Virus record (IMG/VR): IMGVR_UViG_3300029641_000003 | Direction: 5' to 3' (one strand) | Source of the DNA: a virus | Taxonomy: Duplodnaviria; Heunggongvirae; Uroviricota; Caudoviricetes | DNA: 64,000 nucleotides | In this document: in pieces, positions 1 to 58,614 of the stretch | How positions within the stretch are numbered: position 1 is the first letter of the stretch | Layout of the letters: each line of letters starts with the position of its first letter | Notes under the pieces: model-generated | The model's database searches: none | What the model was told of the DNA's origin: nothing | The model's input: the letters and a program-made list of their open reading frames with translations, nothing else | Position numbers and translations under genes: made by a program

Positions 1-2
1 CA

Positions 3-482
3 GAGCAACTGGCGGAGCGTAACGCTGAGTATGTAACGGAAATTTCCCGACTTGAGAAAGAGCGCGCGGCGCTGGCGGCGGAGAATGCACTTGCTCGTAA
101 AGCTGTTCAGGCATTCTGTGAGGTTGTTGGCGACAACACTGAGATTATCTCCGAGTTGGTTGGGCAAGATGACGTTCTGGTTATTTTGAAGGCCATGAAG
201 GCAACAGGAAATATGTCAGCCACCGATGCTTTCCTGGCTGAAATACGTGCGGAGGCACGCAACGAGGGGATTAACTACACCGCAAGCCGTCTTGCTGCTG
301 CGTTCAATCACGGATTTATCAATAAGTCTTTGCGTGAAGTTTTCGACGTTACACGCATGATTTTGTCAGCGAAAGAAGAGTTGGCTAATGAACCGCATCC
401 GATTGATGGCCTGTCTGGTGAATATGCGGAGAAATCCCTTGAAGAATGGGCGGAACAGCTTCGTAAAGGAGTCATCCAGTGA
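3..482 (+). CDS. hypothetical protein, 5'-truncated at window edge
   Basis: Frame 3 is open from base 3 into ORF 156..482; stop overlaps GTG start of next gene (GTGA). Confidence 0.5.
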   Translation, partial: EQLAERNAEYVTEISRLEKERAALAAENALARKAVQAFCEVVGDNTEIISELVGQDDVLVILKAMKATGNMSATDAFLAEIRAEARNEGINYTASRLAAAFNHGFINKSLREVFDVTRMILSAKEELANEPHPIDGLSGEYAEKSLEEWAEQLRKGVIQ

Positions 483-1309
483 GCAAGATTGACTATCAGG
501 CACTGCGTGAGGCGGCAGAGCGTGCAATTCCGGCAATGGAACGCCTGTTAATGTTGCCAGTTGATGATGATCTGATAAGCGAGCAGGAACTTAAAGATAG
601 CGGTGTTGATATTGATGCGCTCAACGCCTTCAAAATTCTGGCCGGACCAGAAACCGTGATGGCGCTACTGGATGAACGGGAAAGAAACCAGCAATACATC
701 AAATCTCGCGACCAGGAGAACGAGGATATTGCGCTAACGGTAGGGAAGCTGTTAATCGAAAACGGTCAGCTTGTTGCCGATACGCTACGCCACTTAGCTG
801 ATAACGAAATCGACTCTGATTATTTTGCTATCACCTCAACTAATGAGAACGGTACTGAAATTGATCATGAGATGTCTATTACCGATTACGCACTGCAAGC
901 TGCCGGAACTGTAGACGAATTGGTTGCGGCGCTGGAAGCCGCAAAATCAAAACTCAACGAGCAGCGTGAGTATTACGAGGGCGTTATCTCGGATGGAAGT
1001 AAGCGCATTGCAGAACTGGAAGCACGGGAAATAAAACCAGCCAAAGGTGAAGTTCTGGTCGTTGTATCTGGTTTTACTGGTTGCGGAAAAAGCGCCATTG
1101 CCGGGGAAATAGAAATCGCGATGAAGGCTATTGGTGTACCGGTTCAGTGGACTAATGGCGATGCGGAAAAGCGCATGACAGGAGCTGACTGGCTGACAGC
1201 GATTGAGATGTACAAACCAACAGTGCGCATCGTGGAAGTTAATGTGCCACGCGCCCCTGGCATTCGCATCAAAGGAGACGCAGGAGAACAAAACGATGAA
1301 AAACCGTAA
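479..1309 (+). CDS. hypothetical protein with C-terminal P-loop-like motif (GFTGCGKS)
   Basis: 276-aa ORF, GTG start with AAGGAG RBS 8 nt upstream; Walker-A-like GxxGxGKS near C-terminus. Confidence 0.55.
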   Translation: MSKIDYQALREAAERAIPAMERLLMLPVDDDLISEQELKDSGVDIDALNAFKILAGPETVMALLDERERNQQYIKSRDQENEDIALTVGKLLIENGQLVADTLRHLADNEIDSDYFAITSTNENGTEIDHEMSITDYALQAAGTVDELVAALEAAKSKLNEQREYYEGVISDGSKRIAELEAREIKPAKGEVLVVVSGFTGCGKSAIAGEIEIAMKAIGVPVQWTNGDAEKRMTGADWLTAIEMYKPTVRIVEVNVPRAPGIRIKGDAGEQNDEKP

Positions 1310-1535
1310 AGCAAAATTACTTCTTTTATCGCGTTCGACGGGGTACGAGAAGCTACCAATCAGCAATCACAAACGGGCGGTGATCGGCATGTTTGGTAGG
1401 GTGGTATTCGCATTTAACTATAAACCCACCGCGTCGCGGAACAGACGAGAGAAGGGGTACGCAGTGCGATGAAAAACCGTAAGGCAAAGATGCTGATAGC
1501 AAAGCCCGGGCAGCGTATCCGTATCTCAAATCGGC

Positions 1536-2117
1536 TTGTTATTTACTATAGATATCTGGGTTTTAGGGGGTGTTCCTCTATTCGTTTTTACGGTGTCTGG
1601 CGGAGCAGAAGCGCGGCGCAAAACCGCTGGAAAAACCACTTGCGCACTAAAGGAGAGTGAGGTGCCTACACTATTCAGGAAAAACTATCCGCGAAAGAGT
1701 AGAGCAATAGAATTGCTGTTTATCATTCTGTTTTTCGTGTTGCTGATACCAATAGCCTCAATATTAGTGACTGTTCTAATGGGGAGAGTATTTGAACCGT
1801 TAGTTGAACTGTATATCGATATAGTGTGGACCCCATTCAGGAAGCTACACAATAAAATTAACCCACATAAGGAAACAGATATGGCAACTTTGACAAAAGA
1901 AGATCGTTTTACCAAAAAACAAATCGCCGAGGCAAAAATCCTCGATAACAACGGAACCTACTTCATCAACGGCTCCATTCTTCCAGTTTATATCAATGAA
2001 GATGGAGACACTTACCTTATTGAAGAGTACGAAAAAGGCGAGCCGAGCGAACACCTCATTAAAGATTTGTTCGCGGATGGCGTTATTGTTGCTGTTAATC
2101 CGATTGGCTACAACTAA
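1536..2117 (+). CDS. hypothetical protein; true start probably ATG at 1881
   Basis: Track ORF starts at TTG; in-frame ATG at 1881 has an AGGA RBS; N-terminal part is hydrophobic. Confidence 0.4.
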   Translation: MLFTIDIWVLGGVPLFVFTVSGGAEARRKTAGKTTCALKESEVPTLFRKNYPRKSRAIELLFIILFFVLLIPIASILVTVLMGRVFEPLVELYIDIVWTPFRKLHNKINPHKETDMATLTKEDRFTKKQIAEAKILDNNGTYFINGSILPVYINEDGDTYLIEEYEKGEPSEHLIKDLFADGVIVAVNPIGYN

Positions 2118-2127
2118 AGCATAAATT

Positions 2128-2640
2128 ATGACCAGTATTACCAGAGAACAGGCCAAGAAAATTATTGAAGCTGCCGATGAGGTTATTAGTGCGCTTGCCG
2201 GAACTAACGAGGATGTTCACCCTGGTAGCGATAACATGCTACGTCTGTGGGATGACCTGAATGACCGTTACGCGCCGCCGGAAGTTGTGCGTGAGCTGGC
2301 GCGTATCGTGCTGGCATCGCTGGAAGCGGAGCCTGTAGCGTGGCGATATCGCTACGTGAAAAAAGGCGTTACGGACTCTCAGGGGGAGCCGTGGGTTGGT
2401 GACTGGAAATATGTACCGACAAAAGAGGATTGCAACGACAGGCCGAGCTATGAGATTCAGGCCTTATTCACTGCCCCGCCAGTCCCGGTGACATCAGAAG
2501 GACTGGTTAAAGCCGTGCGTTTCTATGAACAAGTTAAGCGTGAAAATCCGCCAGTCGAAACCGGAGCATGGAAAGACGCGGTTGACTGGGTGCTCAAAGA
2601 GGCCTGCCAGGTTGTAAACACTGGCATCAAAGGAGACTGA
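2128..2640 (+). CDS. hypothetical protein
   Basis: 170-aa ORF; shares an ASLEAEPV ... TxPPxP segment with ORF 2848..3813. Confidence 0.55.
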   Translation: MTSITREQAKKIIEAADEVISALAGTNEDVHPGSDNMLRLWDDLNDRYAPPEVVRELARIVLASLEAEPVAWRYRYVKKGVTDSQGEPWVGDWKYVPTKEDCNDRPSYEIQALFTAPPVPVTSEGLVKAVRFYEQVKRENPPVETGAWKDAVDWVLKEACQVVNTGIKGD

Positions 2641-2641
2641 T

Positions 2642-2851
2642 ATGGCTATTGCCGCAAGTTACACCATGCATCTCTATTGTGATTGCCTCCAGTGTACAGA
2701 TGGCAAATATAAGTCGCCAGACTTCGGTGAGTATATCGGTACGTCATGGGCTGGCTGTGCAAAAGAGGCGCGCAAGGATGGCTGGCGAATAAGCAAAGAC
2801 AAAACGCGTGCTTTTGCGCCCGGGCATAAAGTTTTGAGGATTAACAAATGA
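2642..2851 (+). CDS. small Cys-rich protein, possible zinc-binding
   Basis: 69 aa with CDCLQC and a further Cys; tightly packed between neighbours with overlapping stop/start. Confidence 0.4.
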   Translation: MAIAASYTMHLYCDCLQCTDGKYKSPDFGEYIGTSWAGCAKEARKDGWRISKDKTRAFAPGHKVLRINK

Positions 2852-3813
2852 CCACTTTAACCGACAAAGAACTGATTAAAGAAATCAAAGAGCGCATAGG
2901 CAGTCTGGACGTGCGAGACAATATTGAGCGCCGTGCTTATGAAATTGCTCTGGCATCGCTGGAGGCAGAGCCTGTTCTGTATCAGTCCTGCACTCGCCCC
3001 ACCTGGAATAGCGGTGTTCCGTGGACGGAATGGAAAGAACGAAGTCGTGAGTGCTACGAAGACGATTTGCGCTTTACAGACACGCCTGACCATGCCGGTT
3101 GGATATACAAATGTCGAAAACTATATACCACTCCGCCAGCGCCGATAGCGTTAGAGGCCATTGAAAACGCAATTGAATACATCCGCAGTATCGCTTTTCA
3201 CATCAATGAAGACGATTACCACGGCAAGCATATTGCGTATTTCATGCGACAAGCATTGGCCTGGCTGGAAGGGCATTCATGCAGCGACGACAGACTGGGT
3301 AAAGCCGAGAATCAAACAGTACACGGCAACCAGGCTGCCGAATCCAATCGCGGTAATGAGTGGACCGGCAATCCTGATATTGATAACGCCATCATCATGC
3401 TCGATCGCATAGATACGCTGGAAAGTTGCGATGATGACCGTATTGAGGCGGTTAAGACTGTTTTGCGTAGACTGGCAGGCAACTCTCCGGTAATTCCGGA
3501 TGGTTTATCCACGGTATGCGCTGAGGCTTATCAGGTTGTAGGAGTTATGGCAGATGCGCTTGGTGTATTCGGTGATGCAGCAGTACAGAAAGTTCTGGAT
3601 AACCTGTCACAGCAAAAACTTGTTCACAGAGATGTGCTGCCGTTCTCGCTTCCGGTAACTCCGGATGGTTGGGTTATGGTTCCTAAACAGGTAACGCCGG
3701 AAATCAGCAACGCGATAAACGTTGTGGGTCAACGCTGTACATGCGGAAATTGCTCTCAGCGGTTGTGGGATTTATTACTCGACGCCACACAGCAAGGAGT
3801 TAACCGTGGCTAA
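2848..3813 (+). CDS. hypothetical protein
   Basis: 321-aa ORF, start overlaps upstream stop; N-terminal region paralogous to 2128..2640. Confidence 0.55.
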   Translation: MTTLTDKELIKEIKERIGSLDVRDNIERRAYEIALASLEAEPVLYQSCTRPTWNSGVPWTEWKERSRECYEDDLRFTDTPDHAGWIYKCRKLYTTPPAPIALEAIENAIEYIRSIAFHINEDDYHGKHIAYFMRQALAWLEGHSCSDDRLGKAENQTVHGNQAAESNRGNEWTGNPDIDNAIIMLDRIDTLESCDDDRIEAVKTVLRRLAGNSPVIPDGLSTVCAEAYQVVGVMADALGVFGDAAVQKVLDNLSQQKLVHRDVLPFSLPVTPDGWVMVPKQVTPEISNAINVVGQRCTCGNCSQRLWDLLLDATQQGVNRG

Positions 3814-34239: not shown

Positions 34240-35199
34240 TCATCCCCGAAAGCCCTCCGGAATTGACCAGTCTTCCCGGTCAAATTCAGACCGATAGCCA
34301 CGCTGTATCATCAGGTCAAATGCTTCATTGATGGTTGCACATCCCTGGGAACCAGAATAATCCATAGAGAAATCCAGGGCGCTGGATCGTTTGGGCTTAT
34401 TCACTGTGGTAGCACTACGTAACCATGCAAATTTTTTTGCCAGTTTTTCAGCGGTACGATACAGAGCCTGCCGTTTTGCGTACCCCTCGTCTGAACGACG
34501 CTTTGCAGCTCTCGCTTTTGCTGCCGCCAGGCAGTGGTTGGTATGTTCTTCCCTGATTACTGTTTTTTTATCCAGCAAGCCATTATCCGCTTGAGAACTA
34601 TCTGCTGGTGAAGCCTTTGGCTGAACCGCGCATGATCTTTCTCTTCTTTTGGCTATAGAGTGACTCTTATTTTCTATTGGCTGTTCATTTTGAACATGGG
34701 GGGGCTTGTTCAATTTGAACAGGGGGTTCCCAGTTTCAAAAAAATAACGAACCTTTGAAATCAACTGCTTAACCAGTTTTGTGGCGTTGGCAAATTTGAT
34801 GCCCTGCTTACTCCCTATCTCCATTGCTACATGAATGAAGTGGAGAAATTGTGTTGTAAACCGGTACACGTTACACACCTGAGCATTGTTATTCGCTACC
34901 TGATGCTGCTTAACAAGCATTCCGCACTTCGTCGCTTCGGCAAATGCCCGGCGCACAGTAGAAATACTGCGTCCTGTAATCTCGGACATATCCGCATATG
35001 AGCGACGGATCATGTATTCATCGGTAGCTCCTGCCAGGTTGGCGAACTCGGCAATAATGGCGCTATGTGAAGGGGAAAGAAAACCGCTATGACGAGCAAA
35101 AAAACTCAACTGATGACCTTTGATTTTTTTGTGGTATTCAGTGTTGTTTTTATACTCAGAAGTGTTGAAAGTAACTGAAACTGAATTTAAAATACTCAC
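34240..35199 (-). CDS. HTH protein, possibly RepL-like lytic replication initiator
   Basis: 319 aa; helix-turn-helix EMSEITGRSISTVRRAFAEATKCGMLV; operator-like motif upstream at 35371..35385. Confidence 0.4.
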   Translation of the reverse strand: MSILNSVSVTFNTSEYKNNTEYHKKIKGHQLSFFARHSGFLSPSHSAIIAEFANLAGATDEYMIRRSYADMSEITGRSISTVRRAFAEATKCGMLVKQHQVANNNAQVCNVYRFTTQFLHFIHVAMEIGSKQGIKFANATKLVKQLISKVRYFFETGNPLFKLNKPPHVQNEQPIENKSHSIAKRRERSCAVQPKASPADSSQADNGLLDKKTVIREEHTNHCLAAAKARAAKRRSDEGYAKRQALYRTAEKLAKKFAWLRSATTVNKPKRSSALDFSMDYSGSQGCATINEAFDLMIQRGYRSEFDREDWSIPEGFRG

Positions 35200-45169: not shown

Positions 45170-48100
45170 TTAATAACCATAAGCAACATACTGTGCATAT
45201 ATTTTATCAGTGGAGCTACTTTTCACTGTAAAACCAGTGACTGAGTGGTTATATGTATAAAGAATTGAATTGACAGCATTCCCGCTGTGAGGCGAAATCA
45301 CAACTACCGCACACGCCTCAGGAAAAGTAGTCGGAAAGTTAACCACGCTTCCTGGTGTTAAATTTGTTATAAACCCCCACTGCATCATCACCTTAGTTGA
45401 TGTATCCTTATGCCATCCATGAATGTTGGCATATGCAGTGTTTTTAGCCTGATATTTCGTGTTGAAATTACTATAGTTACCAGGGGTAATCTGACCAGCG
45501 GCAGATAAATTCCCCATAACCCTTACATGACCATCAGCACGTCCTAATTCTACGCGACCATCACCGCCATCTATCTTTAATGGAGTGTAAACGACATCAC
45601 CATTAACATTTTGCCCAGTGGTTGATATCTGGAAACTATATCCAGTATTAGTTATTAGGAATCCATAGTTATTATTATAAGTTAGCCGTATAGCATTTTG
45701 GCTGCTGGATATAATTTCACCGGTAACAGTACCACCTGTTGTTGGTAACGCACCAACATGACTTGCCGTTAATGTGATATCTGCGGAACCATCAAAAGCC
45801 ACGCCACTTATTTTCCTGGCTGTTTTTAACTTTGTCGCTGTAGCTGCATTACCAGTTGTATTTTGATTCCCGGCAATATTGACGCCCGGAAGATTGATGT
45901 TGGCGGTGCCATCAAACGAAACCCCGCCTATTGTGCGTGCTGTTTGCAGTTTTGTTGCAGTTGCGGCATTGCCAGTAGTGCTCTGATTACCTGTTTTATT
46001 CACGCCCGGCAGGTCGATATTTGCGGTGCCATTAAATGAAACACCACCAATAGTTCTTGCCGTTTGTAATTTCGTTGCAGACGCCGCGTTTCCGGTTGTG
46101 TTCTGGTTGCCTGTTGTATTTACACCAGGGATGGAATCCTTCGATGTGTAGACCTGCGCCCAATCAGACCATGCTGCATCTGTTGAATCTCTGCGAGAGC
46201 GAATAAAAGCCGGAGCATGAGCGCCACTTGTACCGCTCCAGCCTATGAACAACTCGCCTTCACCAACTGCCGTTGCGCCCTTAAGATGAAGCACATTCCC
46301 GTAAGCAGAAGGATAGCCGTTGTTGTACGCCTCATACATCTGCAATCCAGCAGCAGCACCTTGCGTTGTACCGGTGAGCGCAGTAACACGCCCTCTGGAC
46401 GTAATTGTTGGTATCGAAATGTTCGCAGAACCATCAAAATTAACACCGTTGATTTTGCGGGCTGTTTGCAGTTTTGTAGCGGTTGCAGCATTACCTGTTG
46501 TGTTCTGGTTACCGGCAATGTTCACACCCGGCAGGTTGATATTGGCGCTGCCATCAAATGACACTCCGCCGATTGTGCGTGCCGTCTGAAGTTTCGTTGC
46601 GGTTGCAGCATTGCCGGTAGTGCTCTGATTACCTGTTTTATTCACGCCTGGCAGGTCGATATTGGCGCTGCCATCAAATGACACCCCGCCGATTGTGCGT
46701 GCCGTCTTGAGCTTTGTCGCAGTATCTGCGTTTCCCGTCAAATTACCTGTAATGCCACCACTAACTGTTACCCCATTACCGATCGACACCAACCCAGTTC
46801 TTAAATTTATAGCAAAAGGTCTTAATGGGCCGATGTCACCATTTTCTCCCTCACCTTCATTTGTCGGGACAAGATGCAGAGATTCCTCGGATCTCCTGAA
46901 GATAAGGCCAAAGGACTGATTAAATATTCGAAGGGCATTTAATGTGCCAATTTTTAGTTCACCCCCCATTGTATCGCCAGAACGCTGAACTGCGTTACCA
47001 GCTTGAGAAGCAATATCCGTTAAGCCAAGATCTTCTGGGGTTAGAGTAATATCGGCAGACCCATCAAATGCCACACCGTTAATCTTTCTGGCTGTTTTTA
47101 ATTTCGTCGCAGTATCGGCGTTCCCGGTCAGCGTACCAGTGATCCCCGCGCTGAAAGTCTGGCGCGCACTCCAGGTATTAGCCGTGCTCAACAGGGGGAT
47201 CTTTTCTCCGCTGGTTCCGAGTTCTCTTAAACCAAGGTATTGGATAACAGCCAGTGTGCTTGTTTTAGCAAGAATATCGCGACCGACTGACGTTAAATCA
47301 GTCTGGGCTACAGTGTCTGTTCCGGTAAAGTACGGTAATTTATTTGCTCCCGTCGCCAGGCCTGCGAGCGCGGTTAAGGTTGCGTCGAGAGGCTGCTTAC
47401 CTGCCAGTGCATTTGTCATTGTAGTCGCAAAGTTCGGGTCATTGCCCAGTGCTGCAGCAAGCTCATTCAGGGTATCAAGAGCTTCTGGTGATGAGCCGAC
47501 CAATGCAGAAATAGCGGCACGAACATAAGCGGTTGTTGCAATCTGAGTGTTGTTCGTACCTTGTGACGCCGTAGGAGCTGTTGGAACCCCCGTAAATGCC
47601 GGGCTTAATAACGGCGCTTTAAGAGCTAAAGCATCATTAATCGTCTGGCTAAACTGGGGATCATTGTTTATTGCATCTGCAATTTTTTTCAGCGTATCCA
47701 ACGCTGAAGGAGAACCATCAATAAGGGCGGTTATAGCGGCCTGAACAAAGGCAGCGTTTGCGATTTGTGTACTGTTTGTACCTTGTTCCGGAGTTGGAGA
47801 TGTAGGGATACCTATAAATTCCGGGCTATCAACCGGAGCTTTAAGTTTATTTAACGTGCTGATAGCAAGGGGGGTTGCAGCTTTATATTCTTCGTCACTA
47901 TCCAAAGCACTGGAGAACTCAACACCTACAGCACGATTAGCGCGATATTTAGTGCTAATCATATCTGCGGTAACGGCTTGAGCATTGTCAGGCACGATCA
48001 CTCGGCATATCTCAATCTGGTTAGATGCTATGCCCTCATCAACGAGAGCTATAATTCTCGCTGCGCTAATATCCGATGAACTATCTACCTGGCTGGTTTT

Positions 48101-51663: not shown

Positions 51664-54600
51664 TTAATCCTCCAGTAATTTGTCAAGAGATGGGTCATTG
51701 ATAGTCGTGCTGGCACGCTGACGAGGTTGTGGTTGTGATGTGTTCACAACTTTGTCCTGATCGCCTTTGCGGTTGTCTTTGCTTACGCCAAGAATCTCTT
51801 TGAGAACGGAATAAACGTTCTCCAGTGCTTTCAACATAGCCGGATCGTTATTTGCGGTATCTGTTGTTAGCATCTGCCTTATTCCGCTTCGTGCGAGGTC
51901 CGTGACGGTTGGTAGCTGAGGAGGCATTGCAAGGAACGGTTCTTTAGCAGCCACGCCCGAAGCAAACAGGCTTTGATTGATTGCGCCAGTTGTGTCCCTG
52001 ATCGTATCCGCCGTTTTCTGTATGCCACCATTCAGCCAACCGCCAACACTCCTTGTTAACGGACTAATAGCGCGAGCAACATCGGTATTCTGTCCAGAGG
52101 ACTGCAATACAAAGTCATTTAACATTCCGGTGCTATCAATACCGCCCACAAGTCGCGAGAGGTTATCTCCAACGGCGGGGAGGACGGCGGAGGCTACCTG
52201 GTTAAGCCCTGACACAGTTGAATCAAATAGCGAGCCAAAGAAGCCCCTGTCCTCACCTTCAACCACCTTGTAGCCGTTGTCGTAAATCTGCACACCCGCC
52301 GGTGTCGATCTGGCACGCTTCTCGCTGATGGTTGCCGGACTCTCCGGAAGCAGGTCAATGGTTTCTGTATCGCGGTTAACTTTGCGCTTTTGCTGTATAG
52401 CCGTAGTGATATCGGCGATCTGTTCCGCCTTCTGGAAACTAAAGTTTTTGCCCGTTGCTCTGGATATTTTTTCAACAAGGAACTTATCCAATTGCTTGGC
52501 TTTTGCTGCTAACGAGGACATCTCTTCCGGAGAACTGACAGGGCCGAGATTTAGCCCCATATTCGGATCTCCCCCAACTATCCCGGCGATGACGCCCCCA
52601 ACACCGTCTGCACTCATTAACCGCTCCGTCAATCCGGCTGCGGCGGAAGAATTGCCACTAGCTTTCGCGTGGCTGATCGCTTGGGCATTTTCCTGTTGAG
52701 CTGCCTTCGGTTTTTTAGCTGCCTGTGCGTGTTGAACCACGTCAGTAGGGGCAGGCATTACAGCCTGGGCTACGCTTGACGCAGGAATCGCAGAAGATGA
52801 GCCGTTGGCGTATTTGACTTTGCTACCGACACTATATTGGGAGTTGCGAGCGATTAGAGGACCGCCCTTTTCCTTCTGGATTTTATTAATGTGTTCCAGC
52901 GTTTCATCATTGAATTGCCCTTCCCAACGCCCAGTTTTAGCGTTGAATGAACCAAGAGCTGTTTTGATGAAATTGTTGTTAACCGCCGGGTTCCCCCCCT
53001 CCTTCGTCGCAATAGCGCGAACAAGGTGCGTCATAACTTCAGGGTTGCTAACGTCTATTTTATCGTTGGGGGATACCCCTAGATATTTGCTGACGTTTTC
53101 AATGTACTGATTGGTGTTGTTCTCTGTTGGTGGTGCCCATTTTGAAATGATGCTGGATACTGTTTGCAGCTTCTGATACCCGGCGGCAGCACTTGTACCG
53201 TTGTAATAACTCGATACCTGGTTTGCCAATGCCCGAATCCCTTCTTCGGGCGTATTAAACCGCGCAAAACGCTGTTCGCCTTTCGCGTTCGGCGCTTCCA
53301 GTACCGCCCCCTCCTGATTTGCAAAAACCAGGTTCCCCAGGTTGTTATTCCGGTAATTCCTGTTCTTGGCGTTGCTTCCGCCTATATTCAGATCAGCCGT
53401 TATTGTATTTTTTTCAGGCGCTTTAAATTCGTCTGGCGATTTGTAGCCGTGTTCACCCACGCCATCCTCACCACTGCGCCCGCCCTGTAGCTGTCGGGCC
53501 AGATCATTAATTGCGGCTACCGTTTGCTTGGTGCCATCTTCAACGGCTTTCTTAACCTGCGCAGTGCCTTCGCTGCTTGATGAGAACGATTCTTTTAGGC
53601 TGCTGAATACGTTTTTTGTCGTGTCTATAGAACTATTTATGCCACGAGCAATATCTCCAGTATCAAAATTCTGAAGTTTTTCACCAGCCCCCTCAAAGCC
53701 TAACGCAGAAATCCCTTTACCTATCAGGTTGGTTGCGCCAGAAACTAAGCCGCCCATATCAAGCACATTAGCTGTTGCGTAAGCCGATTTTTGCTGTCTG
53801 GACACAGCATCATCATCACTTAAGCCAAAAGCTGCCTTTTGCGCCTCTGTATCAGAGTAACCGTCTATAGCATCGTATCCAGCCATAGCGATATTACCGA
53901 TAATTGGGATTCCTCTGACACCAGCCCTTACGGCTAAGCCTCCGGCAGCTTTGAGAGCTACTTTTCCAGCTTCTTTTTTCGCGATGTTTTCACCAGCGGC
54001 AACGGCAACCTTACCCGCCTCTTTCCTGGTAAGGCTTTCCCCAGCGGAAGTTGCCGCTTTACCAGCGTCTTTCCCTGCCGCTCCACCAGCCGCCGTTTTG
54101 GCTACGCTTTCTTCAGTGACCTTACCTGCTCTGGTTTTAACTGAAGATTTATCACCTGATGATTTTGGTGAGGTACTACCCTCGTTCCCACCAGCATTTT
54201 TTGTCCGATTTTTTTCCTCGCCCGCACTGTTGTTTTTGCCTGGCTGATTTTTTTTCCCCTCTTTGCCTTCCTGACTCCTGCCCGTCTCAGTAGGTTTGCT
54301 GGTGTTTTTTCCCTTCTTGCCCTTGTTTTCTTTACTGTCTCCAGTGCGGCCCGTGTTGCCACCACGTGCACTGCTACGACCGCGTGTAGGGGATATTTTG
54401 GTACGTAATCTGCCACCGCCGAGGAGGTCGCTCAGTTTTAGCCCTCTCTCCTGTGACTTTCGTAGTTTCCGGATCTCTTCGGATACAGTTTCCAGCTCAT
54501 CAATTATCTGGCTGTCGTTGCGTTGAAGCACTTTCGTTTGTTCTTCGATCGCACGCACAGATTTTTCTTTAACGGCTTCAGTAAATGCCTTTGCTGAACC

Positions 54601-55527
54601 GGGCGCGTTATCTGGAGTCTTCCTTTCATTGTCAGGTGCCGGGTAAGTAATGGCGGGGGCTTTTGCGACCACCGGTGCGCCAGCCGCCTTGTCGTTGCCA
54701 TTATCTATCCATTCTTTCAATGATTTAGCCTTACCAGTAATCTCGCGGCTGATATCAAATACGCCCCGTGCTGCCATCCATAGTGGACCACCAGCCCCTA
54801 CCCCGGCAGCATCGGTTACAGCTCCATCGTCGGCTTTCCCTGAACCATCAACCCCCATAATGGAACCGAGTTTTCGCAGGAACCCAACCTGTAGTTTTGC
54901 CTGTGCGCGTAGCTCATTCTGGCGTGCGAGATCCTCGTTTTTTTTCTGAGAGGCAAATCGTCCGTTGCTATCCCGTAACGGTGCACCAGAGGTGCTCTGG
55001 CTTTCTCTAACTGGTTGTTCTTGCCTTGCAGGCTGAATGTCAGGAGTGAGCAACTGAATGCGCTCAGGCGATGACTTCGTGGCTTTGCCTTCAGCCAGCG
55101 GTGCTGTTTTTGATTCCGAATGAGCGGTGCGGTGATTTGCTGCTGCTTTTTGCGGATTATCTATCTCGCTAGTGTTGTTTATACGTAATCTCTGTTTCCT
55201 GGTAGGGAGCCGGTCTTTATACGGCCCCTGTGTGAAACTGTTGCGTTGCGCCCCTGCTTTCCCTGTTCGGGCCAGGCGACGACTTACGCGTCCTTGTGGT
55301 GCGTCGCTGGTATCAGGATTGCGTCCGTAAGACTCAAGTGCTTTTTTTATTTCTGAAAGCGCAGCTAGCTCTTTCGCGTTTGCCGTTTGTATTGCGTCGA
55401 TTATCGCTATTCGGTCTTTTTTATCGTTCAAAATAACCTCACTTACATCGGCGGTGATCACCCTGTTTTTTTGGCGTGGGCTTTGTATTTCTCTTCCAGT
55501 GCTTTTTCCATATGGAGTGCCCGCCAC
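51664..55527 (-). CDS. sit: Sit-like tape-measure / injection protein
   Basis: 1287 aa; long Gly/Lys/Ala-rich low-complexity middle; position before baseplate genes. Confidence 0.6.
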   Translation of the reverse strand: MAGTPYGKSTGREIQSPRQKNRVITADVSEVILNDKKDRIAIIDAIQTANAKELAALSEIKKALESYGRNPDTSDAPQGRVSRRLARTGKAGAQRNSFTQGPYKDRLPTRKQRLRINNTSEIDNPQKAAANHRTAHSESKTAPLAEGKATKSSPERIQLLTPDIQPARQEQPVRESQSTSGAPLRDSNGRFASQKKNEDLARQNELRAQAKLQVGFLRKLGSIMGVDGSGKADDGAVTDAAGVGAGGPLWMAARGVFDISREITGKAKSLKEWIDNGNDKAAGAPVVAKAPAITYPAPDNERKTPDNAPGSAKAFTEAVKEKSVRAIEEQTKVLQRNDSQIIDELETVSEEIRKLRKSQERGLKLSDLLGGGRLRTKISPTRGRSSARGGNTGRTGDSKENKGKKGKNTSKPTETGRSQEGKEGKKNQPGKNNSAGEEKNRTKNAGGNEGSTSPKSSGDKSSVKTRAGKVTEESVAKTAAGGAAGKDAGKAATSAGESLTRKEAGKVAVAAGENIAKKEAGKVALKAAGGLAVRAGVRGIPIIGNIAMAGYDAIDGYSDTEAQKAAFGLSDDDAVSRQQKSAYATANVLDMGGLVSGATNLIGKGISALGFEGAGEKLQNFDTGDIARGINSSIDTTKNVFSSLKESFSSSSEGTAQVKKAVEDGTKQTVAAINDLARQLQGGRSGEDGVGEHGYKSPDEFKAPEKNTITADLNIGGSNAKNRNYRNNNLGNLVFANQEGAVLEAPNAKGEQRFARFNTPEEGIRALANQVSSYYNGTSAAAGYQKLQTVSSIISKWAPPTENNTNQYIENVSKYLGVSPNDKIDVSNPEVMTHLVRAIATKEGGNPAVNNNFIKTALGSFNAKTGRWEGQFNDETLEHINKIQKEKGGPLIARNSQYSVGSKVKYANGSSSAIPASSVAQAVMPAPTDVVQHAQAAKKPKAAQQENAQAISHAKASGNSSAAAGLTERLMSADGVGGVIAGIVGGDPNMGLNLGPVSSPEEMSSLAAKAKQLDKFLVEKISRATGKNFSFQKAEQIADITTAIQQKRKVNRDTETIDLLPESPATISEKRARSTPAGVQIYDNGYKVVEGEDRGFFGSLFDSTVSGLNQVASAVLPAVGDNLSRLVGGIDSTGMLNDFVLQSSGQNTDVARAISPLTRSVGGWLNGGIQKTADTIRDTTGAINQSLFASGVAAKEPFLAMPPQLPTVTDLARSGIRQMLTTDTANNDPAMLKALENVYSVLKEILGVSKDNRKGDQDKVVNTSQPQPRQRASTTINDPSLDKLLED

Positions 55528-55578
55528 TGCGGTAATTGTTCAACGTCACTAACTGGCTGGTAGCCGTATAACGTCAGG

Positions 55579-56403
55579 TTATTGATAATGGTTAGCCATC
55601 CATTCAGATCTAATTGATGGGATAAACTCTCTATTGAGAAATGGGGCGTACAGCGTGGTAGTCACGTCTGCACCCTCCTTAGCGTTTTTGCAACGTTGTG
55701 GCGGTAGGATCAGGCGGCTTGTGCCTCGTTCAATAGCCATTTTTAAGCCGTGGCGAAGGTCTTTCTGCATGAGCTGAATGCGAGCTACCAGAGGGGTAAA
55801 CTCGGTTTCCAGAGCCATGTTTTCAATGATATCGAATCGTCTGTTTGCAGCTTGTGTGAAGTCTTCTGGATCGTCGTTCAGAGATGTACACAAGGCCAAC
55901 TCAGCTATGCGGAGACGAGCAACCTCAGCACTGTACTCTGGAGTTTTCATATCAGGCAAAGTGGCGCGCATACGTTCAAGCAATTCAGCGCCTTTCCCTG
56001 TTAGTGGTTTAAGCGTCCACTCGGTTGGTACTCCGTTTATAGGGACCATAGTTTTAATAAACGGCGGGACAGTCAGGATTTCTACCGTTTCGGCAAGGTC
56101 TGAAAGGTTAATATCTGCGTGATGAACGTTTCCACAGTGACCACACTCATATGAGTAAGTCATGACGGCATCAGGCCTGGAATTAACAAAGATCCACCAA
56201 AGCGCGGTTCTGCGATCCTGAACTGTCCAGTTTGAGCTGTCGTTAATTTCGCCGTCTTGCATAGCGTTGAGGTATTCTGTTGTGGTTGCCTCGTCTTCTG
56301 CCGGATTGATGTCTGAATATTTCAGGGCATCTTTCACAGTAGGTGCATGAAACTGAATTTCTATTTCAGGCTGTGAAGGCAATGGGAATTTGGGAATGTT
56401 CAA
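55579..56403 (-). CDS. hypothetical protein with CxxC zinc-ribbon-like motif
   Basis: 274 aa; YECGHCGNVHH. Confidence 0.5.
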   Translation of the reverse strand: MNIPKFPLPSQPEIEIQFHAPTVKDALKYSDINPAEDEATTTEYLNAMQDGEINDSSNWTVQDRRTALWWIFVNSRPDAVMTYSYECGHCGNVHHADINLSDLAETVEILTVPPFIKTMVPINGVPTEWTLKPLTGKGAELLERMRATLPDMKTPEYSAEVARLRIAELALCTSLNDDPEDFTQAANRRFDIIENMALETEFTPLVARIQLMQKDLRHGLKMAIERGTSRLILPPQRCKNAKEGADVTTTLYAPFLNREFIPSIRSEWMANHYQ

Positions 56404-56647
56404 GGATTCCTCCGAAAGCTAGGTTCAGTTAGTTTTTCAGAGGATAGGGAGTGTGTGATTTGTGGGAGTATTGAATAAGGATCTTTGTCGATCGAACAGC
56501 AACTATTGAGGGTGATTTTTACACCTTAAGTGACGCAATTCACATATCCACAGAGTATTTTTATAAACCTTTTTCTCTTTTTAATCCTTTTTAGATCCTT
56601 TTTAGGCATCGCGGAGGCCAGGGGTGGCGGGGCTTGTAGAGGACCAA

Positions 56648-56765
56648 GGTGTAAGATTTGCCCTCAATTAAGCTATTGAGGTGTAAGATTTGCCCTCAGC
56701 CGGTGTAAGATTTGCCCTCAAAAGGTGTAGTAATTGCCCTCAAAGTGATGTAAAAATTGCCCTCA
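56648..56765. repeat. five direct 19-bp iterons upstream of rep
   Basis: GGTGTAAGATTTGCCCTCA x3, GGTGTAGTAATTGCCCTCA, GATGTAAAAATTGCCCTCA, spaced about 22 bp. Confidence 0.9.
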
Positions 56766-56789
56766 CCATTTGAAGGATCACACAGGGTT

Positions 56790-57545
56790 ATGAACAGAGC
56801 GGAATTAACGGCAAAAGCCGTCAGTCTGATTGAATCAGCGACACCAATTAGCCGTAGCTTGGCGCAGGCCAATGAGATCACAGAGGCGGCTTATCACCTG
56901 ACACGCGACCAAAAGCGACTGTTGTTTATTGTGGTGGGAAGACTTCGCTATGCTTCTAAGGATGGCGTTCTTGGTTCAGGTGCCTGTGAGTTGACGGTCA
57001 ACGAATATGCAGAGATGTATAATTTGCCCTCTGCTGAAGCCAGCAAGGATATTCGTAAAGCTATCTCCGGACTTAGTGAGAAGAAAGTCACGATATATAA
57101 CCCTGATGAATCAACCGAATCAGAAGACAGTTATGAGTCTTATCCCTGGATGATTAAGGAGGCTTACTCACCACGCCGGGGGACTTACATTATTCATCTG
57201 AATCCATATCTCATGCCGTTTTTTACTCTGCTTGATAAGAGGTTCACGAGGCTGAATTTTACTGAAGTGTCTCGCCTGACAAACCCTTATTCTATGCGGC
57301 TTTATGAGTCCTTATGCCAGTATAGAAAGGATGATGGGAGCGGCTTCGCTATACTTGGCGTTGAATGGATGCGGGAGCGTTATGGTCTTCCCAAAAGCTA
57401 TCAACGGTACGCCGAATTTAAGAGAAGCTTTCTGGCAAAAGCTGTAGCTGAAATCGAAAAAAACACAAAAATGAAAATAGTTTTCTCAGAGGTTACAGAA
57501 GGTGGCAGAGTTACAAAAATAAAATTCACCTATCAGCAGTCTTAA
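56790..57545 (+). CDS. repA: Rep_3-family replication initiator (RepE/RepFIB-like)
   Basis: 251 aa from ATG 56790; alignable to recalled F RepE (AAYHLTRDQKRLLFIVVG, SYPWMIKEAYSP, NPYSMRLYESLCQYRKDDGSG). Confidence 0.9.
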   Translation: MNRAELTAKAVSLIESATPISRSLAQANEITEAAYHLTRDQKRLLFIVVGRLRYASKDGVLGSGACELTVNEYAEMYNLPSAEASKDIRKAISGLSEKKVTIYNPDESTESEDSYESYPWMIKEAYSPRRGTYIIHLNPYLMPFFTLLDKRFTRLNFTEVSRLTNPYSMRLYESLCQYRKDDGSGFAILGVEWMRERYGLPKSYQRYAEFKRSFLAKAVAEIEKNTKMKIVFSEVTEGGRVTKIKFTYQQS

Positions 57546-57824
57546 GGGCAATTTCTACACCTCTCTGTAGGTGTAGGATTTGCCCTTAAAGATGGGAGAT
57601 TGAGGGCAATTCTTACATCATTAGTTAGTTGGTTGGATCTTTAACGGCTAACATTATTTGTAATTTATTGATTAATAAGGAATGTGTAAAAATCACCCTC
57701 AGATGGCATCGTATGCTATAGCTATTTTTATCGCACTACTGTTGAATGTTTTATGGTTGTAACGCGTTGATTTTGTTGTGATGTGTAAAAAATGCCATCA
57801 TTGACGTAAACAGCAGGTGTAGAT
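57545..57824. repeat. iteron cluster downstream of rep, mixed orientation
   Basis: AGGGCAATTTCTACACC, GTGTAGGATTTGCCCTT, GAGGGCAATTCTTACATC, TGTGTAAAAATCACCCTCA, GGTGTAGATATTGCCCTCA. Confidence 0.8.
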
Positions 57825-57876
57825 ATTGCCCTCAAGTTTGCCCCTTCCCCACCTTCTCGCACTTTAATACTGCATT

Positions 57877-58614
57877 TCAAAACTTGATCACGTTGCTGGC
57901 GGCGCTTTTAAGTGCGCTTGTTGCTAAACCAGCAGCTCCATTGACTAATGCGGACAGGCCGGAACCGGCAGATGTGTATCGCTGGAACGTGATCGGATAG
58001 GACAAGAATTCGGACACCTGATCACGTGAGCGGCTGATCTCTCCTATCTGAGTCGGAAATACACGCATTTCCTCTTCCAGCTCTTTCCCGCCTTCCTGTG
58101 TAACGCGGTATAGCCTGATATTCATGAGATAATCTGGCGGCAGGTTTAGCGTACCATCGCTATTGGTTACACGAGCGCGGCGCTCTTTGAACCAATTCAT
58201 TATTTTGCCGTCTTCTGTGTCTCTGACCGTCATTGTTACCGGCCCGGCGGTTACGTGCGTTGGCTTATTGAACTCGACGCTACCAATGATTTTGCTTTCT
58301 GTTTCAATATTCCCGCTACTGTAAGTGATGTCCTTAACGAACATATCAAAGCCGCTTAATCCGTCTACGTCTACCGTCCACTGCCAGCCCTGGGCATAGC
58401 GGATACGCATAGCCGTAGCAACTACGTTCTTTCCGTAAGCGATGTCATTGCCGTAGCTCCCACTAACGCCACTGCCAGACACCGCTCTATCCAGAATGTC
58501 GCTGATAAGGTTGCTGGTGAACGATTTCGCGCTAAACGATACCGCACTGGATAGCGTTTGCGTTGCAGCACTAAAAATACTCACGTAGCCCTCCGTGTTA
58601 AAAAATGGTGGCAC
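57877..58614 (-). CDS. putative tail structural protein
   Basis: 245-aa ORF heading the structural block after the replicon. Confidence 0.4.
   Translation of the reverse strand: MPPFFNTEGYVSIFSAATQTLSSAVSFSAKSFTSNLISDILDRAVSGSGVSGSYGNDIAYGKNVVATAMRIRYAQGWQWTVDVDGLSGFDMFVKDITYSSGNIETESKIIGSVEFNKPTHVTAGPVTMTVRDTEDGKIMNWFKERRARVTNSDGTLNLPPDYLMNIRLYRVTQEGGKELEEEMRVFPTQIGEISRSRDQVSEFLSYPITFQRYTSAGSGLSALVNGAAGLATSALKSAASNVIKF

Follow-up and report, generated by a model that had tools for sequence, protein, structure and literature searches.

The window, a 64,000-nucleotide stretch of tailed-phage DNA, contains a replication initiator gene surrounded by short direct and inverted repeats. A preliminary description read this locus as an F-type, RepE/RepFIB-like iteron replicon that had been swapped into a P1-type backbone. 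Which replicon family does the locus belong to, how did it come to lie among tail genes, and how would it be grouped by incompatibility? The window element is a D6-like (P1-g2) phage-plasmid, distantly related to P1, and the locus is the normal, already annotated replicon of such phages, known in its essentials. Judged by sequence comparison, the replicon is a sister of F RepE/ori2, not an F replicon, and is unrelated to P1 RepA. It very probably serves as the low-copy plasmid-prophage replicon of the element, of an iteron-controlled theta type homologous to F ori2/repE/incC.

Layout of the replicon

A complete iteron replicon occupies positions 56462–57836 of the window, on P1-like but D6-type phage-plasmid DNA (Table 1). 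A single plus-strand gene, rep, lies between the pmgB and tub homologues, with repeats around it. The module is sequentially composed of an inverted iteron, a DnaA box, a T-rich tract, a GC-rich spacer, five direct iterons, rep with an intragenic iteron-like site, and six further iterons. The repeats, the initiator and the flanks were all recovered from the sequence, and the proposed iteron replicon is thus present. Its placement between tail genes also holds, the flanking genes being homologues of P1 tail and morphogenesis genes. The interval first assigned to it, 56648–57824, opens at the first origin iteron and closes near the last one downstream of rep. The module itself starts near 56462, with the upstream inverted iteron, the DnaA box and the AT-rich region all left of 56648, and its right end is at 57834–57836.

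Table 1. Positions of the replicon, its elements and its flanking genes in the window.
Feature	Position	Strand	Basis or remark
pmgB homologue, left flank	55579–56403	−	41% identical to P1 PmgB and 91% to D6 PmgB; corresponds to D6 orf41
Exchangeable replicon cassette (origin and rep minus its last 14 nt)	56462–57531	+	Segment swapped for a p0111-type one in NZ_CP085065.1
Inverted iteron left of DnaA box and unwinding region	56507–56525	−	GGTGTAAAAATCACCCTCA on the minus strand
DnaA box, ATATCCACA	56544–56552	+	8/9 match to TTATCCACA
T-rich DNA unwinding element (DUE), five T5 tracts and GATC, TTTTTAGATCC	56556–56604	+	GC drop; alignment with F
Five direct 19-bp origin iterons, at 56648, 56680, 56702, 56724 and 56747	56648–56765	+	Spacings of 32, 22, 22 and 23 bp
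rep, 251-aa Rep_3 (WH1+WH2) initiator, D6-type sister clade of RepE	56790–57545	+	Pfam, structures, tree
Iteron-like site inside rep, GATGTATAATTTGCCCTCT, codons M-Y-N-L-P-S	57014–57032	+	2 mismatches to the 17-mer
Downstream iteron cluster (n = 6), analogue of F incC and P1 incA	57543–57834	mixed	17-mer and repeat-family searches
Downstream iteron 1	57543–57561	−	Overlaps the rep stop codon
Downstream iteron 2	57570–57588	+	17-mer search
Downstream iteron 3	57601–57619	−	17-mer search
Downstream iteron 4	57683–57701	+	17-mer search
Downstream iteron 5	57782–57800	+	17-mer search
Downstream iteron 6	57816–57834	+	17-mer search
tub (tail tube) homologue, right flank	57877–58584	−	48% identical to P1 Tub and 83% to D6 Tub; corresponds to D6 orf43

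The repeats are confined to this module. Across the whole window, the 19-mer GGTGTAAGATTTGCCCTCA occurs exactly three times, at 56648, 56680 and 56702. With up to three mismatches it occurs at seven sites, all within 56648–57619, where shuffled sequences lead to an expectation of 0.01. A looser 17-mer yields 13 sites against 0.49 expected, all within the 1.33 kb between 56507 and 57834.

The origin elements are conserved among related replicons. Phage D6 matches the window exactly in its five origin iterons, its inverted iteron upstream, its DnaA box and its unwinding element; the spacers between the iterons differ. Homologous replicons with 53–78% Rep identity carry four to six direct iterons at the same place. 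The inverted iteron is also invariant in one D6-like plasmid, and one homologous replicon contains three inverted iterons at the equivalent place. Strings resembling a −10 element (TAAGAT/TAAAAAT) lie within the left half-iterons, at the wrong spacing from any −35 element. At the 8/9 level, DnaA-box matches number 11 in the window against 14.7 expected, and a single box by itself carries no significance. The box at the origin aligns with the second of the two boxes of F and with that of a Nissabacter homologue. The GC content falls to 25% at 56550–56609, and the T-rich region aligns with the AT-rich region of F ori2, including ATTTTTATAA and TTTTTAGATC. Rep_3 iteron-type theta replicons are defined by Pfam families PF01051 and PF21205, and both winged-helix domains, WH1 and WH2, are present in the window protein. 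The origin is also of this type, with tandem direct iterons beside rep at about two helical turns (22–32 bp spacing) and a DnaA box and AT-rich element next to them.

An additional iteron-like site is embedded in rep at codons 76–81. Its nucleotides, including the proline codon CCC, are retained in six of eight D6-type lineages, with Rep identity down to 57%, while the adjacent codons vary. Direct comparison found no such site in F repE, and no description of a conserved iteron within rep was found in the literature accessible to search.

The downstream iterons occupy conserved positions in D6, and the DNA in between has diverged. Homologues contain one to ten iterons downstream of rep, mostly inverted. 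In the window, the first downstream pair forms a 20-bp palindrome, which as RNA would fold strongly (−32 kcal/mol, z −5.7). An Rfam search returned only sub-threshold miRNA-like matches caused by this palindrome. A structured RNA or terminator was rejected: the arm differences between the window and D6 are non-compensatory, and most homologues have a single inverted iteron. For these reasons the palindrome is read as a pair of predicted protein-binding sites. A promoter-like site on the minus strand at 57690–57662 was dropped, since it is not conserved in D6.

Kinship with F RepE and divergence from the F replicon

The window Rep matches both Pfam domains well above their cut-offs, Rep3_N with 103 bits (2e-29; cut-off 22.4) and Rep3_C with 56.8 bits (3e-15; cut-off 21.1). 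The start codon, ATG at 56790, is backed by a conserved N terminus (MNR...) among homologues. In the PDB, the closest matches are the RepE structures 1REP, 2Z9O and 7UXY, at E values of about 1e-73, and the matches to R6K π (4e-6) and pPS10 RepA (4e-4) are far weaker. The protein has the same length as F RepE, 251 aa with two winged-helix domains, and is 50% identical to it over 228 aa (E 2e-86). By comparison, the best BLASTP match to P1 RepA has an E value of 0.056, without significance, with 13% identity in a global alignment. The reference p0111 Rep (pO111_2, from RefSeq NC_013370) gives an E value of 0.023 and 17% identity, and F RepFIB is 16% identical.

A neighbor-joining tree places the window Rep, D6 orf42 and six database relatives (53–98% identical) in one clade. 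This D6-type clade is the sister of the RepE/RepFIA clade, with 43–51% identity between them. P1 RepA, p0111 Rep, F RepFIB and a 294-aa Nissabacter Rep form a separate, distant clade, whose members are 40–48% identical among themselves and 10–17% identical to the window Rep. The tree thus bears out the proposed closeness to RepE. Clustering of the initiator with P1 RepA, named in advance as the outcome that would overturn this relationship, is not seen, so the relationship stands. The label RepFIB-like is mistaken, because RepFIB is a relative of P1 RepA: it groups with P1 RepA and p0111, and homology of the kind that defines RepFIB/p0111 replicons was not found for the window Rep.

The replicon follows the same general plan as the P1 oriR-repA-incA (IncY), p0111 and RepFIB replicons: a plasmid-prophage replicon of the theta type, controlled by iterons and dependent on DnaA, in which origin iterons precede rep and control iterons follow it. 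It lacks significant sequence similarity to them, with 13–17% identity between the Rep proteins, and the P1 iterons, GATGTGTGCTGGAGGGAAA, are unrelated to those of the window. P1 repA lies beyond gene 23, beside parAB. The window replicon is instead found between pmgB and tub, two genes that in P1 are direct neighbours, 14 bp apart. Unlike F and P1, the window replicon has no linked partition genes, including no adjacent sopABC of the F type, and no homologue of ParA, ParB or RepA was found in the window. In P1-g2 phages, 14 persistent genes lie between the replicase and the partition system (Pfeifer 2021, PMC7969092).

The F origin provides a closer comparison. In F ori2 (NC_002483), a pair of DnaA boxes and an AT-rich region are followed by four iterons (TGTGACAAATTGCCCTCAG) and an inverted-repeat operator; beyond repE lie five incC iterons in inverted orientation. 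The origin elements of the window replicon follow in the same order, and the DnaA box, the AT-rich region and the GC-rich spacer can be aligned with F. Both replicons have 19-bp iterons at a spacing of about 22 bp and a second iteron cluster downstream of rep. The differences lie mainly in the accessory sites. The window replicon has one DnaA box instead of two, and its iterons and start codon are not separated by an inverted-repeat operator. The F operator, TGTGACAA N9 TTGTCACA, shares only the left half with the F iteron, and no inverted half-site of this kind is present in the 24 bp between iteron 5 and the ATG of the window rep. Conversely, the window replicon contains additional iterons: inverted ones to the left of the origin and across the stop codon, and the one in the gene. 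F ori2 has no inverted iteron at the place equivalent to 56507–56525. The downstream iterons are of mixed orientation, whereas those of F incC are inverted.

The similarity to F is split within the iteron. F and every D6-type replicon share an identical right half, TTGCCCTCA (9 bp), whereas the left half reads GGTGTAAGA or TATGTAGAA in the D6 type and CTGTGACAA in F. The initiators display the same split. The WH1 helix α4, SAEASKDIR, is conserved in both clades. The WH2 helix α4′ reads PDFRRRF in all members of the RepE clade and (A/G)EFKR(S/N/G/A/K)F in all D6-type proteins. In the window the latter helix is AEFKRSF, in which RepE R205 and R207 are replaced by lysine and serine (KRS versus RRR). 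In RepE, R205, R206 and R207 of α4′ are required for binding of iteron dsDNA (PMC10602881), and WH2 contacts GTG/GtCA, which lies within the left half-iteron (PMC4980987). These alignments suggest that WH1 and the right half-site have been kept while WH2 and the left half-site have co-diverged. The claim of F-like iterons, unlike those of P1, is supported as regards the right half; the left half differs.

The replicon is therefore not of F type in the strict sense. The window Rep scores 281.4 bits against the NCBIfam RepE equivalog NF010305, below its cut-off of 342 bits, and F RepE scores 537.8. The full F iteron with its WH2-read half TGTGACAA, which would characterize IncFIA proper, and the F-type operator are both absent. 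At the nucleotide level, on which replicon typing is based, a megablast search retrieved 111 plasmids, all of the D6 type, and not one IncFIA plasmid.

RepE R118 is a dimer-interface residue, and the R118P substitution yields constitutive monomers. The matching residue is glutamate in the window Rep, so the control of monomers and dimers may differ from that of F. RepE residues N22, R47, L142, R145, F146, Q171 and Y172, which contact the single-stranded DNA of the DUE (PMC10602881), are all conserved in the window Rep. RepE binds a thymidine pentamer of the T-rich DUE strand (PMC10602881).

The D6-like family and exchange of its replicon

The backbone of the window element is collinear with that of P1. 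The gene order 16-bplA-pmgA-sit-pmgB-[rep]-tub-pmgC-bplB-pmgG-21-22-23 is the P1 order, and the structural proteins are 41–54% identical to those of P1. In a nucleotide search with the 24-kb region, D6 is the sole phage record covering much of it (37% at about 80% identity). P1-type phages match 3–6% of the region, in the tail-fibre gene. The backbone can thus be called P1-type as regards synteny, but it is a divergent, D6-like one.

The replicon meets its counterpart in D6 orf42, which the GenBank record of D6 describes as a putative plasmid replication initiator (pfam01051). The Rep is orthologous to orf42, the iterons agree, and the position between pmgB and tub is the same; the replicon is thus of the D6 type. 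Rep is the best-conserved protein of the neighbourhood, with 98.4% identity to D6 against 62–91% for its neighbours. The rep reading frames are 91.7% identical at the nucleotide level, and their 63 nucleotide differences lead to 55 synonymous and four non-synonymous codon changes. The two phages differ in the spacers of the control region, which have diverged, and in about 45 extra bp before tub in D6. The backbone of the window represents a divergent sub-lineage, in which Sit has only 62% protein identity to that of D6.

Among 5426 complete E. coli genomes, 94 (1.7%) carry a replicon of this type. Its 101 occurrences are all plasmid-borne, mostly on molecules of about 90 kb, with none on a chromosome. 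MOB-suite assigns the D6-type replicon to rep_cluster_1704. A D6-like plasmid has been described as having a "repB associated with iteron sequences" (PMC6799933), and a recent preprint used D6 repB as a screening marker and reported that D6-type replicons are missing from PlasmidFinder (10.1101/2025.09.12.675607). This gap means that D6-like phage-plasmids, despite this occurrence in E. coli, are easily overlooked or mislabelled. With PMC6799933, PMC7969092 and the preprint covering its essentials, the feature is counted as already known; the basic picture is unchanged, and the main finding would be expected by a specialist. Three modest details are new: the split of the half-sites relative to F, the intragenic iteron and its conservation, and a cassette exchange that leaves orphan iterons. 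An explicit statement of the sister relation to RepE/ori2, or an analysis of the half-sites, was not found in the literature accessible to search.

The D6-type replicon can be replaced at the pmgB/tub locus. A p0111-type cassette sits between pmgB and tub in at least four E. coli plasmids, NZ_CP085065.1 among them, whose flanks are 96–99% identical to the window. In NZ_CP085065.1, the left flank matches 52880–56461 of the window (1–3581 of the plasmid extract), and homology resumes at 57532. The incoming cassette encodes a Rep of 294 aa, 85% identical to the p0111 reference, and has its own DnaA box and 21-bp iterons. It is typed by MOB-suite as rep_cluster_2164 and shows about 77% nucleotide identity to the common p0111 replicons. 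Of the D6-type replicon, the swapped plasmids still have the final 14 nt of rep and five of the six downstream iterons; one iteron and 88 bp were lost via a deletion between two iterons. The retained rep end and iterons mark the RepE-like cassette as the older allele at the locus. Judged from these remnants, the exchange is real and ran from the D6 type to the p0111 type. D6-type Rep genes are also found elsewhere. One (72% identity) occupies the canonical P1 repA position beside gene 23 on a P1-like metagenomic contig that encodes a gp23 with 77% identity to the P1 protein. Another (78%) lies near ddrB/darB-like genes on a different phage-plasmid-like contig, and a third (57%) is on an ordinary Nissabacter plasmid, beside a rep of the P1 RepA family. 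The cassette exchange in the sister plasmids shows that replicon modules move within the D6-like phage group, and the virion genes stay put.

These exchanges bear on the proposal that the window element arose by a recent swap, in which a P1-type phage-plasmid would only lately have exchanged its P1 RepA replicon for one taken up from an F-like (IncFIA) plasmid and inserted among the tail genes. P1-group phage-plasmids do exchange replicons, and IncY and p0111 alternate at one locus in this group (PMC9603915, PMC7969092). The D6-type Rep at the P1 repA position and the p0111-type cassettes at the pmgB/tub locus of sister plasmids are also in keeping with such an event. Yet the same replicon, with the same iterons, is present at the same place in D6 and in about 100 sequenced D6-like plasmids, which marks this position as the ancestral arrangement of the family and not as a swap in the window element. 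The remnants in the swapped sisters likewise identify the RepE-like allele as the older one. Capture from an IncFIA plasmid is further at odds with the protein identity of only 50% to RepE and with the missing nucleotide match to any IncFIA plasmid, and no IS element or repeat is seen at the cassette borders. A recent swap is therefore very unlikely.

Function, control and incompatibility

The same body of evidence bears on whether the module still works. One could regard it as an inactive relic, a decaying rep/iteron module in an element whose plasmid state is kept by another replicon, such as one of the RepL type. A promoter scan recognizes no rep promoter, and the window contains a RepL homologue at 34243–35118, 28% identical to P1 RepL. 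In P1, RepL is annotated as the lytic replicon and is repressed in lysogens, and the homologue fits a role in lytic replication here. Against decay, the rep reading frame is intact and under strong purifying selection, and the iterons are conserved while the spacers have diverged. The architecture is kept in homologous replicons down to 53% Rep identity. Moreover, in the near-identical complete plasmid pMUB-MIN14-1 (89.7 kb, 99.9% identical), rep_cluster_1704 is the sole replicon typed by MOB-suite. The exclusive occurrence on plasmids in the 94 E. coli genomes likewise favors a working replicon. A relic is extremely unlikely on these grounds, and the replicon is real and almost certainly functional, although no experiments on it were found in the literature accessible to search.

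A working replicon might still cross-react with F. It would then be functionally IncFIA, with titration by iterons and incompatibility with F-like plasmids, on the argument that the half-site read by WH1 is identical. The conserved 9-bp right half-iteron and WH1 recognition helix favor this reading. Against it, the two clades are consistently distinct in the left half-iteron and the WH2 helix, and MOB-suite gives the D6-type replicon a cluster of its own. Functional membership in IncFIA is accordingly improbable. The co-divergence of WH2 and the left half-site instead predicts that the replicon should be separate from IncFIA in incompatibility, and a consequence for incompatibility grouping, as the preliminary description expected, is plausible on the sequences.

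The preferred reading, a functional D6-type plasmid-prophage replicon, comes with a ready mechanistic model because of its sister relation to RepE. By homology with RepE, Rep monomers would bind the five direct iterons. The WH1 helix α4 would read the half-site shared with F, TTGCCCTCA, and the WH2 helix α4′ the family-specific left half, GGTGTAAGA. Host DnaA at the adjacent box may help to melt the T-rich unwinding element. The same Rep molecules would hold the T-rich strand on their back face, after which loading of the host replisome would follow. Loop-back melting of the RepE type is considered the best model, given the conserved DUE-contact residues and the five T5 tracts. The six downstream iterons are predicted to titrate or handcuff Rep, which would limit copy number and cause incompatibility. 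The intragenic and upstream inverted iterons probably also titrate or handcuff Rep.

A scan for the rep promoter with the σ70 consensus returned nothing on the plus strand, and comparison of eight upstream regions with manual inspection revealed no conserved −35/−10 pair for rep. A late-promoter pattern derived from four annotated P1 promoters was applied to find a late promoter for pmgB-sit re-created beside the replicon. It gave six matches across the window, where 7.6 would be expected, and none of them is close to the replicon. With only 24 bp between the last iteron and the ATG and no F-type operator, the rep promoter probably overlaps the iterons, like P1 PrepA. Rep bound there would then autorepress, as at PrepA.

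A more specific proposal for the D6-type control circuit is put forward tentatively and is itself rather unlikely. It holds that the circuit differs from that of F in that the operator has been replaced by iterons at three places: inverted to the left of the unwinding element, inside rep at codons 76–81, and, again inverted, across the stop codon of rep. By binding there, Rep would loop or roadblock the gene that encodes it. In the swapped sister plasmids, the orphan D6-type iterons left behind would function as an incompatibility determinant and so keep out competitors of the D6 type.

The identity of the replicon matters because it determines coexistence with other plasmids and phage-plasmids, as well as classification by typing tools. 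One conserved and one diverged half-site constitute a natural experiment on iteron specificity and the evolution of incompatibility. The one 216-kb cointegrate examined carries IncFII, rep_cluster_1418 and rep_cluster_1704, and IncFIA is absent from it.

Replacement of the replicon cassette in sister plasmids

Sister plasmids whose backbone is 96-99% identical to that of the window carry a p0111-type replicon at the same locus. Their Rep is 294 aa long and shares 85% identity with the pO111_2 Rep. The p0111-type cassette brings a DnaA box and five iterons (21 bp each) of its own, and leaves behind the final 14 nt of the D6-type rep together with five orphan D6-type iterons. The difference between the D6-type and p0111-type replicons at this locus is an allelic cassette replacement.

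Features of the window, with strand where assigned
Feature	Window coordinates	Strand	Description
P1 RepL homologue	34243-35118	-	28% identity, E 1e-21
Exchanged segment	56462-57531		Corresponds to 3582-5006 of L018, the locus of sister plasmid NZ_CP085065.1, by sequence comparison
Iteron-like sequence in rep	57014-57032		Codons ATG TAT AAT TTG CCC TCT
Inverted iteron pair	57543-57588		Two full iterons forming a 20-bp palindrome that begins at the rep stop codon

Iteron sequences in rep and residue 124

The palindrome at the rep stop codon has a predicted RNA fold of -32 kcal/mol (z -5.7), and an inverted iteron overlaps the stop codon in five of the eight D6-type lineages. In six of the eight lineages (57-98% Rep identity), the iteron-like site within rep is kept at the nucleotide level, down to the CCC codon for Pro, whereas the surrounding codons are variable. 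Among the compared rep genes, the site is missing from F repE and from those of loci L009 and L017.

The R118P mutation of the F initiator RepE yields the constitutively monomeric, high-copy RepE54. The equivalent residue in the window Rep, at position 124, is E. It is D in D6 and in P0002, a D6-type relative, whereas D6-type members that are more distantly related have R or K. Judging from these residues, monomer-dimer control of the window Rep may differ from that of F.

D6-type Reps in other backbones

A D6-type Rep of 72% identity is encoded on a 104-kb metagenome scaffold (L011, 6001-6759), next to gene 23, where repA canonically lies in P1. The scaffold backbone is P1-like (gp23 77% and gp22 74% identical to P1). 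A 380-aa HTH/metallophosphatase-like protein occupies the place of parAB in P1. A D6-type/RepE-like rep of 57% identity is also found on CP028040, an ordinary 73-kb plasmid of Nissabacter sp. SGAir0207 (L013, 6001-8472), accompanied by two DnaA boxes and by six iterons at perfect spacing. It directly adjoins a rep whose product (294 aa) belongs to the P1 RepA/p0111 family; therefore, the two replicon families lie side by side on one plasmid.

Lineage of the element

By sequence, the window element is a divergent D6-like sub-lineage. Region 40000-64000 aligns to D6 at ~80% nucleotide identity across only 37% of its length, and the Sit proteins are 62% identical. Near-identical plasmids are found in E. 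coli and E. marmotae. The RepL homologue is probably the lytic replicon of the element.

Part of the tail-fibre gene (45897-47785) shares 82-85% nucleotide identity with the S tail-fibre genes of P1, P7, and phages related to them. The backbone outside this segment does not match P1 at the nucleotide level. The pattern suggests that the segment is a mosaic piece gained by exchange.
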